Both the position numbers and the translations under genes were made by a program. Positions 1,832 through 50,090 of a stretch of DNA of 64,000 nucleotides are shown here, piece by piece. The stretch is from Minisyncoccota bacterium (lineage in GTDB: Bacteria > Patescibacteriota > Minisyncoccia > Minisyncoccales > CG1-02-41-26). The notes beneath the pieces were generated by a model. That model was not told the origin of the DNA. It did no database searches and worked only from the letters and a program-made list of their open reading frames with translations. The stretch's first letter is position 1. Each line of letters starts with the position of its first letter. The stretch lies in NCBI GenBank assembly GCA_028718785.1, contig JAQULB010000002.1:84750-148749 (forward strand), given 5' to 3'.

Positions 1832-4800
1832 ATGAGTAAATTAGCAAAGAAATTCGCAACAATTGCAACAATCATCACGGTTGTGGCAATGGTTGTGGGT
1901 CCTGTTGCTCCAGCTCAAGCGCAAACCACAGCTGAGCTTCAGGCCCAAGTAGCCGCTTTGCAAGCTCAATTAACTGCTCTACTTGCCCAGCTTAACGCAA
2001 CAACTGGTGGCACCACCGGCACAACCGGAACATTGCCATCTGGCTGTTCTTTTGACAGAAATTTAAAGCAAGGCATGTCTGGAGCGGATGTAAAATGCTT
2101 GCAACAGGTTTTAAACTCTGACGCTGACACGCGAGTGGCAGTTTCTGGAGTGGGATCTGCTGGTAATGAAACAACGTATTTTGGCTCCTTAACCACAGCC
2201 GCTGTTAACAAATACCAAGTAAAACAAGGTATCGTGGCAGTGGGAACGGGTTTTGTGGGTCCTCTTACCAGAGCTAAATTGAACGCAGGTACTACAGGAG
2301 GCGCCACAGGCACAACATTGCCTGCAGGATGCACCACAAATTCGGGCTATAGCCCAACAACAGGCCAGCCATGTGGAAGCGGAACAGCTGTGGTTATTCC
2401 AACCACTGGCGTTGTTACTGCTTCTTTAGCCAGCGACAATTCAGCTTCGGCTTCTATTGTTACTGATTCAACAGCAGGCGACGGCGCGCAGTCGTTAATT
2501 CCAATGCTTAAAGTTAATTTAAGCAATGGAACAGCTAGCCCAATAACTGTAACCTCAATGAAGTTCACTCGAAGCGGTATTTCCGATGACAGTGATATTT
2601 CACAGGCCTACCTTTACGATGGGGATACCATGTTAGCTGACTATAGTTCTTTCTCGTTGACTGTTTTAACCTTTAATTCAGCTTCGTTGATAACAATTCC
2701 AGCTAATACTGTTAAAACAATTACCTTGAAAGTTGACTTGGCTGATACAACAGACGCAGGTGGAAAAACTATCAGGTTTGGCATAAACGCCGCTTCTGAT
2801 ATTGTTTCTAATGCTTCTTCAATTGGGGGAGTATTTCCACTTACTGGCAACTATATGACAACTGCTCAAACAAGCAGTTTGGGAAAGTTGACTGTGGCTG
2901 TTCAAGCAACAAATCCAGCCGCTCCTGATCCAGGCGCTGGCGTTGAAGTGATGAAATTCACTTTAGCTGCTGCTGATCAAAATATTCAGGTTAAAAAATT
3001 AGTGTTCACTGATGTTGGAACTGTGGCTTACACTGACTTAACCAACTTCACTTTGTTTGATGCCGCTACCCCGATTGGTTCGGTTGTGGCTTCAGCCAAT
3101 TCTGATAAAACAGTTGTAATGGATTTGTCAGCAAGTCCTATCTTGATTGAAAAAGGCAACACCAAGAATATGACCTTGAAGGCCGATATTGTCGGGGGCA
3201 CAAGCCGAGATTACACATTCAAGTTCCAGAATATGTATGACATTGTGGCCTATGACACTCAATACGGCATTTATGTTAAGCCAAATCAGTCAGATACTTG
3301 GACAATTTTAAGCGGCGCGAAAGGAACCATTAATAATGGTACCGTAACCGCCACTAGAGCAACCGATTCTCCAAGTGGCAATATTTCGGCCTCTTCAACC
3401 AATCAGGTTTTGGCTAAGTTTGTCTTAAAAGCCAGTGGCGAAGATGTCAAAATTTCTGATTTAACTTTAAAGATTTATGGTTCTATTGGCGTTGTCGGTA
3501 TGTATCAAACCAGTGTTTATTATAATGGCGCCCAAGTGGGGCAAACAACCACTACAATGGATACTCAGGCAACCGCAGGAGCTACTGAGGGTGTAATTTT
3601 TAGCTTTGGCAATACCTTAATTCTTCCAGCTGGAAGTGAGAAGGTTTTGGAAATTAGGTCTGATGTTAAAAACGCTTCAGGAGGTTCAATTGCGGCTGGT
3701 TCAACTTTAACCGCCCAGGTTTCTTCCTTTACGGCAACTGGAAAAACATCAGGAGCAAGCGTTACAATCGGCTCGGTGACTGGTTATCAATTAACCGTGT
3801 CAGCAGGCACGCTTGTTGTAACGGAAAATCAAGCTGTTCCTGATTGGTCTTCTTCAACTCCAACAGGAGTGGCAGGAGCCACCAATGCTTTGATTGGTTC
3901 GTTTATTCTTACAGCTGGTTCTGGAGAAGGAGCTAGTGTAACCGCGCTTACAGCGCAGATTATTGGCACAGCTAACACAGAATACCAAAATGTTCGAATC
4001 TACAAAGGAACATTAGCAAGCGGTGTCCAACTTGGCGCTGCTTTGAATAATGGGGGAACTCCAACTGTGGCAACTGACTATACCGTATATCCAAGCCCAT
4101 ATCTTAGTTTGAACGCTGGAGAGCAAGTTGTGTTAAATGTTTATGCTGATATTTTAACCGGCGCTTCCACAGCCACAATTAAGAATGTTAAAATGGGCGT
4201 TGTTTATGGAACAGGCAAAGTAACCAACACCTCAGTTAACAGTTCTGGAACAGTAACCGGCCAAAACTTAGTTGTTTCTTCTGGCGGTTATGTGGGCGTG
4301 TTTGCTGATACAAACACCCCATCGGCTGGATTAGTGGTGATGGGAACAACTGGCGTTGAGTTTGCTAAATTTAAATTATCAGCAAGCTCTTCACCAGAAG
4401 CAATGACAATTTCTGGCCTTGTGGCAACAACCACTCTTAATGCAGGAACTGCTTTGGCCCCAACAAGTTCTGTAAGTAGCATTACATTGACTTCAGCTCT
4501 TAATCCTTCTTGGAGTGTAATACTACCAAGTTTGAGTTCTGCTGGTGTTGCTGACTTCACTGGTTTGATGACAGCAAATCCATTAGTTATCCCAGCGGGC
4601 GAAGAAGATGTTATCACCTTGAAAGCCAATATAGGTGTTTATGGAGCTGCTGATTCTAATTCATATATTGTTTTTGGATTGGCAACTACAACCTATAGAG
4701 GAGAATCAGGCAGTCCAACTACCATAGCTCCAGCTTACAGGGTGGCGGGCACCGCTCAATATATCTACAAGAGCAAGCCAACCGTTACTTTAATTGCTCA

Positions 4801-5509: not shown

Positions 5510-5547
5510 TTATCCACAGGGGTTGACAAGAAATTATGTTGTATAAT
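5510..5547 (+). promoter_or_regulatory. DnaA-box 9-mer + TTGACA + TATAAT (non-canonical spacing)
   Basis: TTATCCACA (5510-5518), gggg, TTGACA (5523-5528), only a 13-nt spacer, TATAAT (5542-5547). Promoter function is uncertain because of the short spacer. Confidence 0.35.
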
Positions 5548-45466: not shown

Positions 45467-45558
45467 AAAATTGGATGGGAGCTGGCACTCACTTTATAAC
45501 ATTTGGAGTATAACCCTCCCGTCCATTGGCAAAAAACTATTTTTATAGTTTTTTGCCA

Positions 45559-46458
45559 ATGGACAATAAAACGAACAAAATGCAAAAGAATATTTTGTTA
45601 AAGGATTTAACCACTTTTAAGATTGGAGGTGTGGCAAAATATTATTGCCAGGCCAGTAGCCAAGAAGAAATTATTGAGGCCGTAAAATGGGTGCAAGAAA
45701 AAGGCGCGCCGTTTTTTGTTTTAGGCGGGGGAAGCAATGTGTTGATAGGCGATAAAAAATATAAAGGATTAGTGATACAAATAAAAAATCAAATCTTAAA
45801 AATCAAAAACACAGATCAAAACTCAAAAATTATAGAAGTGGGGGCAGGGGTTCCTTTGGGAAAGTTGGTTGGAGTTGCTTTGCAAGAGGGATTAACTGGA
45901 ATGGAGTGGGCAATGGGAATTCCCGGCACAGCGGGAGGGGCTGTTTATGGGAACACGGGAGCGTTTGGCCAGTCAATGGGAGATATAGTAGAAGAGGTGG
46001 AAGCAATAGATATATCAAATATCAAATATCAAATATCAAATATCAAAAAGGAAGGTTGCAAGTTTGGATATAGAGATTCTATTTTTAAAAGAAGTAAAAA
46101 CTTAATAATTTTGTCAGTTAAAATAAAATTGCAAAACGGAGAAAAAGCAGAAATTGAAAACAAAATGAAAGAATTTTTTCAAAAGAAAAAACAAACTCAG
46201 CCCTTAGAGTTTTTTTCTGCTGGATCAATTTTTAAAAATGGCGAAAATTATAAAGCCGCGGACTTGATTGAAAAAGTTGGGCTAAAAGGCAAACGTATTG
46301 GAGGGGTGGAAGTTTCTCAAAAACACAGCAATTTTATTGTTAATAACGGCCGGGGCAAAGCCAGAGATGTAAAAAAATTGATTGATTTAATTAAAAAACA
46401 AGTCAAGAAAAAATTTAATATGGAACTTCAAGAGGAGATCCAATATCTTGGGTTTTAA
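45559..46458 (+). CDS. murB: UDP-N-acetylenolpyruvoylglucosamine reductase
   Basis: LKDLTTFKIGGVAKYY, FVLGGGSNVLI, GIPGTAGGAVYGNTGAFG, FGYRDSIF, SAGSIFKN, GGVEVSQKHSNFIVN. Start is the ATG at 45559 or 45580; the ORF-track start at 45526 is a TTG inside a hairpin. Confidence 0.85.
   Translation: MDNKTNKMQKNILLKDLTTFKIGGVAKYYCQASSQEEIIEAVKWVQEKGAPFFVLGGGSNVLIGDKKYKGLVIQIKNQILKIKNTDQNSKIIEVGAGVPLGKLVGVALQEGLTGMEWAMGIPGTAGGAVYGNTGAFGQSMGDIVEEVEAIDISNIKYQISNIKKEGCKFGYRDSIFKRSKNLIILSVKIKLQNGEKAEIENKMKEFFQKKKQTQPLEFFSAGSIFKNGENYKAADLIEKVGLKGKRIGGVEVSQKHSNFIVNNGRGKARDVKKLIDLIKKQVKKKFNMELQEEIQYLGF
46022..46056 (+). repeat. five perfect tandem copies of the heptamer ATATCAA inside murB
   Basis: 46022-46056 reads (atatcaa)x5. 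It is translated as ISNIKYQISNIK. Confidence 0.95.
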
Positions 46459-46484: not shown

Positions 46485-46523
46485 TTATCCACATGTTGAC
46501 ACATTGCGTTAAAGTGCGAAAAT
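46485..46523 (+). promoter_or_regulatory. promoter with abutting perfect DnaA-box 9-mer
   Basis: TTATCCACA (46485-46493), tg, TTGACA (46496-46501), 16-nt spacer ending in TGc, GAAAAT (46518-46523). Confidence 0.5.
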
Positions 46524-46572
46524 AAATAAAGGATGGCAGCATAGTCGACTGTCAAAAAAAGATACTAAAACG

Positions 46573-46617
46573 ATGCCAGCAAAAAAAAAGAAGAAAGCAA
46601 CAAAAAAGAAGAAATAG
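46573..46617 (+). CDS. possible 14-aa lysine-rich micropeptide (MPAKKKKKATKKKK)
   Basis: ATG...TAG lies between the promoter at 46485-46523 and the terminator at 46638-46696. No clear SD. It could equally be a non-coding RNA. Confidence 0.3.
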   Translation: MPAKKKKKATKKKK

Positions 46618-46637
46618 TTTTTCTTTTGTTGAAACAG

Positions 46638-47207: not shown

Positions 47208-47246
47208 AAAAAGCGCGCAAGGAGGTGAAACCAGCGCGCTTTTTTA
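47208..47246 (+). terminator. intrinsic terminator
   Basis: aaaaagcgcgc ... gcgcgcttttt with a T-run. Confidence 0.8.
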
Positions 47247-47277
47247 ATGGTTTTATGGTAAAATGTTATTAAAATAA

Positions 47278-47345
47278 ACAAAAACTCCGCCTTTCGGCGG
47301 GTTCCTGCGAGTTTAACTCGAAACAAAATCTGGATTGTCACCCAT
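47278..47345 (-). ncRNA. predicted ~68-nt small RNA, antisense-complementary to the adjacent tRNA-like gene
   Basis: Delimited by a near-consensus promoter (47350-47377) and a CCGCC-GAAA-GGCGG + U-run terminator (47300-47271, minus strand). Nucleotides 47342-47329 (GGUGACAAUCCAGA) are complementary to the RNA encoded at 47453-47440. Contains an inner hairpin CGAGU-UAA-ACUCG. Confidence 0.5.
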
Positions 47346-47349
47346 ATTT

Positions 47350-47396
47350 AGTATATCATTAAGTATCTTTTTGTCAATGTAGAAAATTGTGGATAA
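47350..47396 (-). promoter_or_regulatory. near-consensus sigma-70 promoter with upstream DnaA-box 9-mer (minus strand)
   Basis: Minus strand reads TTATCCACA (47396-47388), 10 nt, TTGACA (47377-47372), 16-nt spacer ending in TGa, TATACT (47355-47350). Confidence 0.65.
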
Positions 47397-47406
47397 AGAA
47401 ATATGT

Positions 47407-47474
47407 TGGAGGTACGGGGAGTTGAACCCCGAAACTCTAGGTGACAATCCAGAGTTTGCTACCGAGCTACCCCC
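47407..47474 (-). tRNA. atypical 68-nt tRNA-like gene (anticodon region contains GUC/UGU; identity unresolved)
   Basis: Minus strand reads GGGGGTA GCTCGGTAGC AAACTCTGGATTGTCACCTAGAGTTT CGGGG-TTCAACT-CCCCG TACCTCC A. It has a 7-bp acceptor stem and a canonical T arm. The D arm is truncated to 3 bp with a 4-nt loop, there is no U8, and the anticodon arm has an 8-nt loop or a bulged U. A possible TGaTATAAT -10 lies at 47494-47486 (minus). Confidence 0.55.
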
Positions 47475-47501
47475 AACACAATCGAATTATATCATAAACA
47501 T

Positions 47502-50090
47502 ATGGGATTATTAAGTAAAATTTTAGGGGATCCAACAGAAAAGTTTTTAAAAAAGGCCTGGGTGGATGTTGAAAAAATAAATTTTTTTGAAGAAAATTTT
47601 TCAAAATTTTCCGCTGAAGAATTAAAGCAAAAAACTTTTCAATTTAAAGAACGATTAAGCAAAGGGGAAACATTAGATGATATTTTGCCCGAGGCCTTTG
47701 CTTTGGTTAGAGAAGGAGCAAAAAGAACTCTTAATCAAAGGCATTTTGATGTTCAGCTTATTGGGGCTATGGTTTTGCATCAAGGGAAAATTGCGGAAAT
47801 GAAAACCGGAGAAGGAAAAACCTTAACTTCAACTTTGGCTGTTTATTTAAACGCATTAGGGGATGAGGGAGTTCATGTGGTGACAGTTAATGATTATTTA
47901 GCTAAAAGGGATTCGGTTTGGATGGGGCAGATATATAATATACTTGGTTTAAGTGTGGGGTGTATCGTTAATGACGCTTCGTTTTTATACGATGAGGAAT
48001 ACGAGCAAAAAATTTCTAATAACGAATTTCTAATTTCTAAACAAATTCAAAAATCAAATGTCAAAAATCAAAAAGATGAGGAAAGGGACATAAAGGGCAG
48101 TTTTAAAGTGGAGCAAAGTTTTTTAAAACCATGTCAAAGAAAAGAGGCCTACACAGCTGACATTACCTATGGCACAAACAATGAATTTGGCTTTGATTAT
48201 TTAAGAGATAATTTAGTTTTTAATTTAGAGGATAAAGTTCAGAGGGATTTTAATTTTGCTATAGTAGATGAAATTGACTCAATTTTAATTGATGAGGCCA
48301 GAACACCTCTTATTATTTCTCAGCCCGACCTTGAATCATCGGTTTTGTATAAAGATTTTTCAAAAATTGTTCCCAAATTAAAAGAGCCAGTTGATTACAA
48401 TTTAGATGAAAAATTAAAAACTGCCTCATTAACCGAAGAAGGCATAAATAAGATTGAAAATATTTTAGGCGTGGAAAATATATATGAAAGCAAGGGCATA
48501 AAATATTTGCATTTTTTGGAGCAGTCCTTGAGAGCAATGGTTTTTTTTCAAAAAGACAAGGATTATATTGTTAAAGACGGGCAAATTATTATTATTGATG
48601 AATTTACAGGCAGAATGTTGCCTGGTCGACGATACTCTGGGGGCTTACACCAAGCCATTGAGGCCAAAGAAAAAGTGGAGGTTCAGCCAGAATCAAAAAT
48701 TTTAGCCACCATTACTTTTCAAAATTATTTTCGGTTTTATAAAAAACTATCCGGAATGACAGGCACGGCTTTAAGTTCAGCAGAGGAATTTGACAAGGTT
48801 TATAAGTTAATGGTTGTGGCTGTGCCCACAAACAAAAAAATGATAAGACGGGACTTGCCTGATTTAATTTACAAAACCGAAAAAGCCAAGTTTAAGGCCG
48901 TGGTGGAAATAATAAAAGCCAAGCAAAAAATTGGCCAGCCCGTATTGGTGGGCACAAAATCAGTTGAAAAAAATGAGTATTTGAAACGGCTTTTGGAGCG
49001 AGAGGGAGTAAGGCATGAAATTTTAAACGCTAAAAACCACGAACGAGAAGGAGAAATCATTGCTCAAGCTGGTAAAAAGGGTGCGGTAACTGTGGCCACA
49101 AATATGGCTGGAAGAGGAGTGGATATTATGCTTGGCGGAGTGCCCCCAAGCAGAATTAAATATCAAGTATCAAATATTAAAAACAACGAAGAAGAGATTA
49201 TAAGCGAACAGTACAAACAATGGGAAAAACAAAGAGATGAAATTTTAGCTTTGGGCGGGCTTTGCGTTGTTGGCACAGAAAGGCATGAAGCCAGAAGAAT
49301 TGACGACCAGTTAAGGGGCAGGGCAGGCAGGCAGGGAGATCCGGGCTCGTCTCAATTTTTTGTTTCTTTGGAAGATGATTTAATGAGGATTTTTGGAGGA
49401 GATAGATTAAAAGCGGTTATGAACACCTTAAAAGTAGATGAAAATCAACCCATTCAAGCGGGGATAATCTCTAGGGCTATTGAAAAAGCTCAAATTAGGG
49501 TTGAGGGATTTAATTTTGACGGAAGAAAGCATGTTTTAGAGTATGATGATGTTATTTCAAAGCACAGAAACGCTATTTATTCAAAAAGAGAAGACATTTT
49601 GAAGCAAAACTATGACGAGTTAAAAGAAAATGTTTTATTAATCTTAAAAAAAGAGCTTGAAAAAATTACAAGCATTTACTCAAATAGCGACACCTCTCAA
49701 ACAGAAGCTATTATTGAAGAAATTAAAACTATTTTTCCCTTAAGCGTTCAAGACATTGAAAGAGTTAAAGTTTTAAAAGATGGAGAGGAGATATTGAAAT
49801 TTTTAAGCGAAGCGTTAGAGAGGTTTTATTTGGCCAAAGAAGCCCAAGACGGGAAAGAAAGCTTTCAAAAACTTTTAAAATTTATTTGTTTGAGAACAAT
49901 TGATTTTTTCTGGACAGAACATTTGGTTTCTTTGGATTACTTAAAAGAGTCGGTTGGGTTAAGGGCCTATGGGGGAAGAGATCCGTTAGTTGAATATAAA
50001 TCCGAAAGCCACAAGCTTTTTAGAGAATTGCAAGATTCTATCAATGCTCAAATTTCAAGAACCGCTTTAAAGGTTTCAATGAACAAGTAA
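47502..50090 (+). CDS. secA: preprotein translocase ATPase SecA
   Basis: 862 aa. MKTGEGKTLT Walker A, ITYGTNNEFGFDYLRDN, VDEIDSILIDEARTPLIIS, TGMTGTA, TNMAGRGVDI, GTERHEARRIDDQLRGRAGRQGDPGSS. Confidence 0.95.
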   Translation: MGLLSKILGDPTEKFLKKAWVDVEKINFFEENFSKFSAEELKQKTFQFKERLSKGETLDDILPEAFALVREGAKRTLNQRHFDVQLIGAMVLHQGKIAEMKTGEGKTLTSTLAVYLNALGDEGVHVVTVNDYLAKRDSVWMGQIYNILGLSVGCIVNDASFLYDEEYEQKISNNEFLISKQIQKSNVKNQKDEERDIKGSFKVEQSFLKPCQRKEAYTADITYGTNNEFGFDYLRDNLVFNLEDKVQRDFNFAIVDEIDSILIDEARTPLIISQPDLESSVLYKDFSKIVPKLKEPVDYNLDEKLKTASLTEEGINKIENILGVENIYESKGIKYLHFLEQSLRAMVFFQKDKDYIVKDGQIIIIDEFTGRMLPGRRYSGGLHQAIEAKEKVEVQPESKILATITFQNYFRFYKKLSGMTGTALSSAEEFDKVYKLMVVAVPTNKKMIRRDLPDLIYKTEKAKFKAVVEIIKAKQKIGQPVLVGTKSVEKNEYLKRLLEREGVRHEILNAKNHEREGEIIAQAGKKGAVTVATNMAGRGVDIMLGGVPPSRIKYQVSNIKNNEEEIISEQYKQWEKQRDEILALGGLCVVGTERHEARRIDDQLRGRAGRQGDPGSSQFFVSLEDDLMRIFGGDRLKAVMNTLKVDENQPIQAGIISRAIEKAQIRVEGFNFDGRKHVLEYDDVISKHRNAIYSKREDILKQNYDELKENVLLILKKELEKITSIYSNSDTSQTEAIIEEIKTIFPLSVQDIERVKVLKDGEEILKFLSEALERFYLAKEAQDGKESFQKLLKFICLRTIDFFWTEHLVSLDYLKESVGLRAYGGRDPLVEYKSESHKLFRELQDSINAQISRTALKVSMNK

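Follow-up and report, generated by a model that had tools for sequence, protein, structure and literature searches.

What is a tRNA-shaped gene doing beside a second small gene whose predicted product begins with nucleotides that can pair with its anticodon arm? The question is raised by the spacer between murB and secA in a 64,000-nt stretch of a Minisyncoccota contig (JAQULB010000002.1; the whole stretch is called the window below), where the genes are arranged in the order wzy/TPR, murB, a small open reading frame (ORF), the RNA module on the minus strand, secA, secD and secF. The module consists of a 68-nt tRNA-like RNA (47407-47474, minus strand) and an antisense small RNA (sRNA) of about 65 nt (47278-47343, minus strand). 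To judge by the sequence comparisons reported here, it looks like a real, so far undescribed RNA-against-tRNA control system. All of the elements described in the original prediction for this locus are present where they had been placed.

The tRNA-like RNA (47474->47407) folds into a four-way junction with zero linker nucleotides, and the minimum-free-energy (MFE) and centroid structures agree on this fold, with the 7-bp acceptor stem and textbook T arm that had been predicted for the 68-nt minus-strand element. Its folding energy is -29.8 kcal/mol (z = -3.44 against dinucleotide shuffles). The acceptor stem (47474-47468 paired with 47414-47408) contains a single G.U pair, at 3:70 (G3.U70), and the discriminator is A73 (A47407). 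Between the two acceptor strands lie a D-like hairpin, GCU-CGGU-AGC (47467-47458), with a 3-bp stem and a tetraloop containing GG; an anticodon-like arm (47457-47432), with a 9-bp stem and an 8-nt loop, AUUGUCAC, that contains U-GUC-A; and the T arm, CGGGG-UUCAACU-CCCCG (47431-47415). When both strands of the window are counted, there is only one hairpin of the T-arm type (paired stem, G53-C61 and a TTCRANY loop), against 0.1 expected. As a cloverleaf, the minus strand is more stable than the plus strand by 6.5 kcal/mol (-35.0 versus -28.5 kcal/mol), because two G.U pairs turn into A.C on the plus strand. In the predicted transcripts, pairs outside the Watson-Crick set are G.U, which supports the assigned strand sense.

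The first possibility to be considered is that this is a genuine decoding tRNA of odd shape, either a +1 frameshift suppressor or the organism's tRNA-Asp, and that the complement next to it is incidental. The canonical T arm, the GG in the D-like loop, the U-GUC-A context and the 12-bp acceptor/T branch are in keeping with this possibility. However, only the 7/5 branch and the T loop conform to the standard cloverleaf, from which the RNA departs by having no 8-9 linker, a 4-nt D loop, a 9-bp anticodon stem with an 8-nt loop, and a variable region of 0 nt. ARAGORN does not call it (0 tRNA genes and no tmRNA across the whole 64-kb window), and Rfam gives it no gathering-level match. The best sub-threshold Rfam matches are mascRNA-menRNA (23.6 bits, gathering 42.5) and Tymo_tRNA-like (18.6 bits, gathering 40); RF00005 is not listed at E<=10 on 451 nt, and the top match in the tRNA clan is the transfer-messenger RNA (tmRNA), with 10 bits (gathering 47). 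It had also been asked whether correction of an assembly indel would yield a standard tRNA; no single indel does so, several separate insertions being needed, and L001, a Logan contig from an independent assembly, matches it at 100% identity over 231 nt and in the same orientation, which shows that the element is not an assembly artefact. The anticodon loop has 8 nt in the MFE structure, but on this non-normal body it can also be given 7 nt by way of an A.C mismatch or a bulged U, so that the analogy with +1 frameshift suppressors rests on a loop that is open to both drawings. Further, in the secA neighbourhoods of 12 distinct related genomes that were compared (SecA 66-85% identical; their contigs bear L numbers here), the tRNA-like gene is absent from L082/L083 and broken in L084 and is therefore dispensable, and the complement recurs in other instances. 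A decoding tRNA is thus an extremely improbable reading. When ARAGORN was run on 60 secA loci of other bacteria, no tRNA genes were found, and hence these loci provide no ordinary-tRNA control.

The second RNA has a promoter and a terminator of its own. Its promoter, TTGACA-16-TGaTATACT (47350-47377, minus strand), agrees with the consensus at 11/12 positions plus the TG; it had been predicted to be the best in the window, and it is indeed among the best, though not uniquely so, as it ties with three others. The predicted transcript comprises a seed (nt 1-15, 47343-47329), a hairpin, CGAGU-UAA-ACUCG (47320-47308), and the terminator CCGCC-GAAA-GGCGG (47300-47287), which had likewise been foreseen and is followed by a U run (47284-47276). 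The fold z of the whole sRNA is -3.64. Ten nucleotides upstream of the -35 sequence lies a TTATCCACA box (47388-47396, minus strand), which corresponds to the DnaA-box consensus. Six copies of this box exist in the window (at 5510, 8925, 32362, 46485, 47388 and 54058), against 0.68 expected; three of the six are intergenic and lie 2-10 nt upstream of a TTGACA -35, and the inverted form, TGTGGATAA, is found 6 nt upstream of the sRNA promoters in L085 and L093. From this distribution, the box looks like a recurrent regulator site on strong promoters of the lineage. The tRNA-like gene is preceded by a promoter-like site, TTAATA-17-TGaTATAAT (47486-47514, minus strand; 10/12 plus TG), with a predicted start near G47479; its -35 sequence (47514->47509) falls within codons 3-5 of secA, and its extended -10 lies at 47494->47486. 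L084 has the same promoter-like element. A leaderless peptide, MGDNPDFVSS, which could be read from an ATG at the predicted start of the sRNA, had been held the less likely reading, and it is unsupported, as the sRNAs of L085 and L093 have no ATG at that site.

The two RNAs are linked by their sequences. As had been noticed at the outset, nt 2-15 of the sRNA are a perfect complement (14/14) of the anticodon loop and stem of the tRNA-like RNA, and only two copies of this 14-nt core exist in the window, where it is the sole perfect inverted repeat of at least 14 nt with a spacer of more than 40 nt. The complement grows to 15 contiguous pairs when one G.U is allowed and reaches 26 nt at 85%. The target segment, UCUGGAUUGUCACCU (nt 22-36 of the tRNA-like RNA; 47439-47453, minus strand), takes in the final 5 nt of the stem's 5' strand, the entire anticodon loop and 2 nt of the 3' strand. 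At the DNA level, the inverted repeats extend over 47324-47349 and 47433-47458, with a spacer of 97 nt, and their arms are only about 65-75% alike outside the core. When the two RNAs are co-folded, about 33 imperfect pairs are formed over the entire 5' half of the tRNA-like RNA, and the energy is -78.4 kcal/mol, versus -54.6 kcal/mol for the two apart.

It had been suggested that related genomes be searched for the same gene pair. Among the 12 distinct related genomes, three have the pair intact and one has it broken. The modules of L085 and L093, called type B here, are 81% identical to each other. In L093 the module occupies the minus strand of the spacer that separates secA from the gene after it, and in L085 it is found in the secA-secD spacer; a terminator hairpin stands between secA and the module in both. 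In L093, the TGTGGATAA box is followed by TTGACA-16-TATTAT (11/12 plus TG), a 63-nt sRNA with a strong terminator, a TGtTATAAT element and an 87-nt tRNA-like gene. In L085, the elements after the box are TTGACA-16-TATAAT (12/12), an sRNA with its terminator, TGaTATAAT and a tRNA-like gene of 89 nt, which ARAGORN misses. ARAGORN calls the L093 gene 'tRNA-Ile(gat)', whereas Rfam rejects it (the top match is tRNA-Sec, 31.8 bits versus the 47-bit gathering threshold), and the T arm and the 3' end of the acceptor are all that it has in common with the element of the window. In the type-B fold the acceptor/T branch is 8/4, the D and anticodon stems have 6 bp each, and the variable arm is long. Its precursor shows an additional feature: a conserved leader, TTGCGGAGGT (L085 5649-5638 and L093 about 3629-3618, both minus strand), stands ahead of an ATG that opens a 3-codon frame (ATG GGA GGY TGA) over the 5' acceptor strand, so that a Shine-Dalgarno-like site and a mini-ORF are present on the tRNA precursor.

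Covariation in relatives had been set beforehand as a test of the pair, and its outcome is positive: L085 and L093 have the two-gene layout with core sequences that are unrelated or diverged, and the sRNA of each matches the anticodon arm of its own partner. The complement of seed and arm is 14/14 in L085, and the inverted repeat of L093 (spacer 101 nt) matches at 15/16 positions, the lone mismatch being a G.U in RNA. Between L085 and L093, four positions of the seed/anticodon-arm duplex are changed on both partners, two are changed on one side to G.U, and none is lost. Contiguous seed pairs number 15, 14 and 17 in the window, L085 and L093, values that were reached by 4, 0 and 0 of 2000 shuffles, respectively. 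The seed falls within nt 1-19 of the predicted sRNA in each of the three genomes, and it spans the whole anticodon-like loop. Cognate seeds (first 25 nt) pair with -33.4, -24.6 and -30.7 kcal/mol, and non-cognate ones with only -7 to -16 kcal/mol. In the type-B cloverleaf, 96.8% of the cells are paired and eight of the 31 pairs are changed on both sides, as compared with 32-43% and 0-2 double-changed pairs in controls with a slid 3' partner; the D stem is nearly all rewritten between the two genomes with its pairing retained. These changes indicate that the type-B cloverleaf is under selection.

In a screen of 569 kb of sequence for T-arm-type hairpins with a nearby complement on the same strand, only the window, its duplicate L001 and L085 were returned. 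There are four T-arm-type hairpins in the 569 kb, the fourth being that of L093, and all of them belong to such pairs. No relative has an intact tRNA-like gene without the complement; in L084 the module is broken and only the 5' half is left. The idea, put forward in the original prediction, that two small RNAs with boundaries of their own form an anti-tRNA or sponge-type pair is thus supported by recurrence and covariation in L085 and L093. Attempts to find more instances gave little: an nhmmer search with all three modules found only the L084 remnant, a type-B covariance model found only its two training sequences and not the element of the window, a metagenome scan with 20-mers gave one chance match in a high-GC coding region, and a search with the N-terminal 200 amino acids of SecA gave no relative closer than 75%.

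The same sequences might be evolutionary debris, that is, a decayed tRNA whose anticodon and T arms were partly duplicated, in inverted or flipped-loop form, within a rearrangement-prone spacer, with complementarity as a by-product and functionless transcripts. The sRNA body does resemble the 3' half of the tRNA-like RNA (p about 0.01), in the way that a degenerate copy would; the low likeness of the arms outside the core also suits this account, as does the variability of the spacer among relatives, of which L084 is rearranged and carries an insertion resembling a miniature inverted-repeat transposable element (MITE). However, L085 and L093 keep the layout of promoter, 5' seed and terminator with different sequences and compensatory changes, the type-B cloverleaf alone has eight compensatory pairs, and three perfectly paired cores are not expected under neutral decay. 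Debris is therefore regarded as unlikely. Copying of an arm in inverted orientation, which had been offered as another way of explaining the match, is probably the origin of the sRNA gene, and as such it is compatible with a functional pair.

We consider it somewhat more probable than an even chance that the module is a pairing-based two-RNA system, in which the sRNA masks or unfolds a mis-decoding, and hence harmful, tRNA-like RNA and so serves as its antidote. The 5' end of the sRNA would nucleate on the exposed anticodon loop and spread into the stem and the 5' half, by which the anticodon would be masked and the cloverleaf unfolded, and the resulting duplex would perhaps be cut by a double-strand RNase. 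Judged from its letters, the window's RNA combines G3.U70 and A73, the identity set of alanyl-tRNA synthetase (AlaRS), with a GUC-containing loop, and it may therefore take alanine and read Asp-type or four-base codons; the RNAs of L085 and L093 would be allo-tRNA-like with an Ile-type (GAU) anticodon. Such a mis-decoding adaptor would be harmful when free. A further step, which we propose tentatively as a possible but less probable claim, is a toxin-antitoxin (TA) reading, with a mis-charging or mis-decoding tRNA-like toxin and an antisense RNA antitoxin that would together form a new TA or abortive-type class. The strongly promoted sRNA would be the antidote in an RNA toxin/RNA antitoxin pair that genomes can acquire and lose, and loss of antitoxin transcription would release proteome-wide mistranslation. 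Indirect support for this reading comes from the reported toxicity of allo-tRNAs and from the intergenic slots that the RNA pairs have in common with ParE TA genes.

Complementarity is symmetric, and the sequence alone therefore cannot name the regulator. The tRNA-like RNA could be a decoy or sponge, and the sRNA could act on genuine tRNAs (for example, on tRNA-Asp through GUGACA, which matches its anticodon loop) or on mRNAs. In addition to the symmetry, this is favored by the loops, which mimic real Asp (UUGUCAC) and Ile (YUGAUAC) anticodon loops. However, the pairing runs into stem sequences that are particular to each tRNA-like RNA, and the sRNA promoters are the stronger ones, fitting an excess of the sRNA over its partner; a reversal of roles or a set of other targets is thus rather unlikely.

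The broken copy in L084 (SecA 79%) shows how such a module may be lost. There, the secA strand reads gTGACA-16-TGATATACT-AAATAT-GGATGACAAGCCAGAGTTTGCTACCGAGCTACCCCCAACAC...ATG, from which it follows that the sRNA promoter of the window is the secA promoter of L084. The 5' half of the window's tRNA-like RNA is the antisense of the L084 secA leader, with 31/31 identical positions; over its first 300 nt, secA has 60 differences between the two genomes. L084 has neither a T arm nor a 3' acceptor strand nor a second copy of the core, and the joint falls exactly within the 14-nt core. Both variable spacers of L084 carry a MITE-like repeat, TTTTGTCACCCTGAGCGATTAGCGAAGGGTC ... CTCAGAATGACA (about 380-460 and 3110-3290), one copy of which adjoins the -35 of the secA promoter. 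The L084 sequence is read as a destroyed module, in which a one-off inversion between the complementary cores would have been followed by an insertion, and the inverted repeat would accordingly be older than the split of the window and L084 lineages.

The L084 arrangement also prompted the idea of an invertible promoter switch (inverton), in which the repeats at 47324-47349 and 47433-47458 recombine and the flip of about 100 bp turns the promoter toward secA. In the window alone, an inverted repeat flanks a strong promoter, in L084 the promoter is reversed with its joint exactly in the core, and in both of these respects the locus resembles invertons such as fimS, with inverted repeats around a promoter segment of about 100 bp and the opposite orientation in one relative. 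Unlike those systems, however, no recombinase is seen among 40 ORFs of the window, L084 lacks the second repeat, and the assemblies of the window and L001 have the same orientation. The repeats of L085 and L093 differ from those of the window and from each other, and the type-B promoter lies outside them, which does not fit a site-specific switch. We therefore rejected the inverton as the principal explanation and regard it as very improbable; our search of the literature for invertible promoters in the candidate phyla radiation (CPR) gave nothing relevant. A relic of an integration site (att) was also rejected, as no integrase was found, the repeats are inverted and not direct, and viral scans of either half were empty.

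Several points weigh against the proposal of a pairing-based two-RNA system. The 31/31 identity has been kept in L084 despite its broken tRNA-like gene, for which the pair model alone gives no account; possible sources are a rearrangement of recent date, spread of the module by horizontal transfer, or a further role of this block as the secA leader or upstream ORF. Only three intact instances exist, and the type-A element of the window is not a detectable homologue of type B, so that the covariation evidence bears on the window by analogy of architecture. The two types share their architecture and geometry: the acceptor/T branch has 12 bp, and so do the D and anticodon stems taken together (3+9 in the window, 6+6 in type B). 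Their gene orders differ, the tRNA-like gene preceding the sRNA in the window and following it in type B. No terminator lies between the two genes of the window, and a read-through RNA would carry both arms in cis. The promoters and terminators are assigned by consensus matches, and the transcripts are predicted from them. DNA-level homogenisation of the inverted repeat could be another source of the matching changes in the arms. Finally, it is uncertain whether so reduced a body, with neither an 8-9 linker nor a variable loop, can be aminoacylated.

The position of the module raises another possibility, which is that it is a cis-antisense device for the sec genes, acting through convergent transcription or pairing with the sec mRNA, maybe with an upstream ORF that overlaps the start of secA. 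A candidate secA promoter with an extended -10, TGgTAAAAT (47256-47264, plus strand), lies 10 nt past the T run of the upstream terminator, in the same place as TGcTATAAT in L082, and secA is thus plausibly transcribed from this site; if it is used, the entire RNA module would plausibly be antisense within a secA leader of about 235 nt. At the corresponding site of L084 a decayed sequence, TGTTACTTT, is left, and the strong promoter has taken its place. In favor of a cis-antisense device, every instance flanks secA on the opposite strand, the window retains the upstream secA promoter at the L082 position, the L084 counterpart of the sRNA promoter drives a 25-codon ORF that overlaps secA, and the plus-strand leader has a fold z of -4.6. 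However, such a device gives no account of the seed/anticodon-arm match or of the tRNA-like folds, the module is absent from most relatives, a terminator hairpin stands between secA and the module in L085 and L093, and the upstream ORF shows more non-synonymous than synonymous changes. In short, this explanation is quite improbable.

The upstream ORF is in itself an open frame on the secA strand (window 47383-47514, plus strand; L084 492-569, plus strand) that stops 13 nt within secA. In L084 it encodes MDDKPEFATELPPTQINYIINPWDY* in 25 codons, its ATG being 5 nt past the -10, and in the window the frame ends in ...GDNPEFATELPPTQSNYIINIWDY*, with a candidate TTG start at 47422, 9 nt past GGAGG. 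The frame could be a coupled leader peptide or could have arisen by chance. As an explanation of the conserved 31-nt block, a leader peptide was rejected: although the frame is open in both genomes, the codon changes between them are mostly non-synonymous (four, versus two synonymous), and conservation is at the nucleotide level.

The surroundings of secA are otherwise stable. Synteny is conserved among the relatives, and only two spacers vary, murB-secA and secA-secD. The left edge of the first slot is formed by a GC-rich bidirectional terminator hairpin (47208-47244, no strand assigned), which lies 3' of a 136-amino-acid ORF and is common to the relatives. In the closest relative, L082/L083 (85%), there is no trace of the module: the shared terminator is followed directly by the TGcTATAAT promoter and secA. 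ParE toxin-antitoxin genes occupy the murB-secA slot in L086 (2514-2995) and L087 (2516-2995), and a ParE/YafQ toxin-antitoxin pair occupies the secA-secD slot in L094 (5436-5968), whereas both slots are empty in L095. The ParE-type TA genes thus sit in exactly the two intergenic slots that are used by the RNA pairs of the window, L085 and L093.

Among known RNAs, allo-tRNAs are the nearest to the tRNA-like partner. Their acceptor branch comprises 12 bp, divided 8/4 or 9/3, their variable arm is long, their D arm resembles that of tRNA-Sec in its long stem and tetraloop, and their anticodons are mostly non-cognate, the commonest being UAU (Ile), GCG and GUC (Asp) (Mukai et al. 2017, Nucleic Acids Res 45:2776; PMC5389517). 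Allo-tRNAs are active in E. coli, where their induction stops growth and kills the cells; AlaRS charges those that carry G3:U70; and allo-tRNA genes, which were reported from Clostridia, Proteobacteria and Acidobacteria and not from CPR, often lie near toxin-antitoxin loci (PMC5389517). No antisense partner RNA is reported in that paper, in which the words 'antisense' and 'complementary' do not occur (PMC5389517). L085 and L093 agree with the allo-tRNAs in the 8/4 branch, in a D stem of 6 bp and in having both a long anticodon stem and a long variable arm, and the window element shares the G3:U70 determinant of AlaRS and a GUC-type loop; the latter differs from them in its 7/5 branch, its 3-bp D-like stem with a tetraloop and its lack of a variable arm. 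Reduced D regions on an acceptor/T minihelix, as in the window, also occur in mascRNA/MEN-beta, the viral tRNA-like structures and the tRNA-like domain of tmRNA. The mascRNA and viral families are, however, eukaryotic or viral, and the window's matches to them are sub-threshold; unlike tmRNA, in which G3:U70 also occurs, the window element lacks an mRNA-like domain (no tmRNA is called by ARAGORN).

On the side of regulation, type VIII toxin-antitoxin systems are pairs of an RNA toxin and an antisense RNA antitoxin (for example, SdsR/RyeA and CreT/CreA; PMC8610362). The present module resembles them in that small RNAs are encoded together and the putative antitoxin would act through base pairing (PMC8610362), and adjacent small RNA genes with antisense complementarity are found in the window, L085 and L093. 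It differs in that SdsR and RyeA overlap on opposite strands, whereas the genes here lie side by side on one strand. The tRNA pool is also where CreT acts, which is a further likeness; CreA, in contrast, exerts its effect on a promoter through Cascade. In neither of these pairs is the toxin a tRNA-like RNA with a masked anticodon, and toxicity here is putative. A type I system does not fit, as the only short frames in the module are MGDNPDFVSS and the acidic leader ...GDNPEFATELPPTQSNYIINIWDY, neither of which is hydrophobic. In CopA/CopT, RNA I/RNA II and Sok/hok, a short and strongly expressed antisense RNA contacts an exposed loop of its target with a seed, and the duplex then extends. The seed at the very 5' end of the sRNA is in keeping with such loop-initiated control; the targets of those three systems are, in contrast, mRNAs or replication primers, whereas the target here is a tRNA-shaped non-coding RNA. 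Searches of the literature gave nothing relevant on an antisense RNA that masks the anticodon of a tRNA or tRNA-like RNA, or on tRNA-like RNAs in Patescibacteria. The module is thus a new combination of two known themes, non-canonical tRNAs and RNA/RNA antisense control.

How hosts tolerate active, lethal allo-tRNAs is a puzzle, and an adjacent antisense RNA against the anticodon arm offers a concrete answer to it. If the toxin-antitoxin reading is true, it would explain both the presence of allo-tRNA genes among TA loci and their lethality when expressed alone, and a tRNA-shaped RNA would join the short list of RNA toxins. The finding shows that such elements occur in CPR bacteria. It also gives a rule for searches, namely an atypical tRNA-like gene with a promoter-proximal complement to its anticodon arm in a neighbouring gene on the same strand, and an anticodon-masking RNA could serve as a switch for engineered suppressor tRNAs.

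A few other features were seen near the locus. The 136-amino-acid ORF next to the module has a match on only one other contig. Just 3' of murB, at about 46485-46620 (plus strand) in the window, and also in L082, L085, L088 and L094, there is a conserved unit that has its own TTATCCACA-TTGACA promoter and a strong terminator and includes a TGACAG...CTGTCA hairpin and a mini-ORF of about 14 codons that is rich in lysine (MPAKKKKKATKKKK-like). At the other end of the gene, a 20-bp perfect hairpin (45521-45564) overlaps the listed TTG start of murB at 45526, and the true start is probably further downstream.

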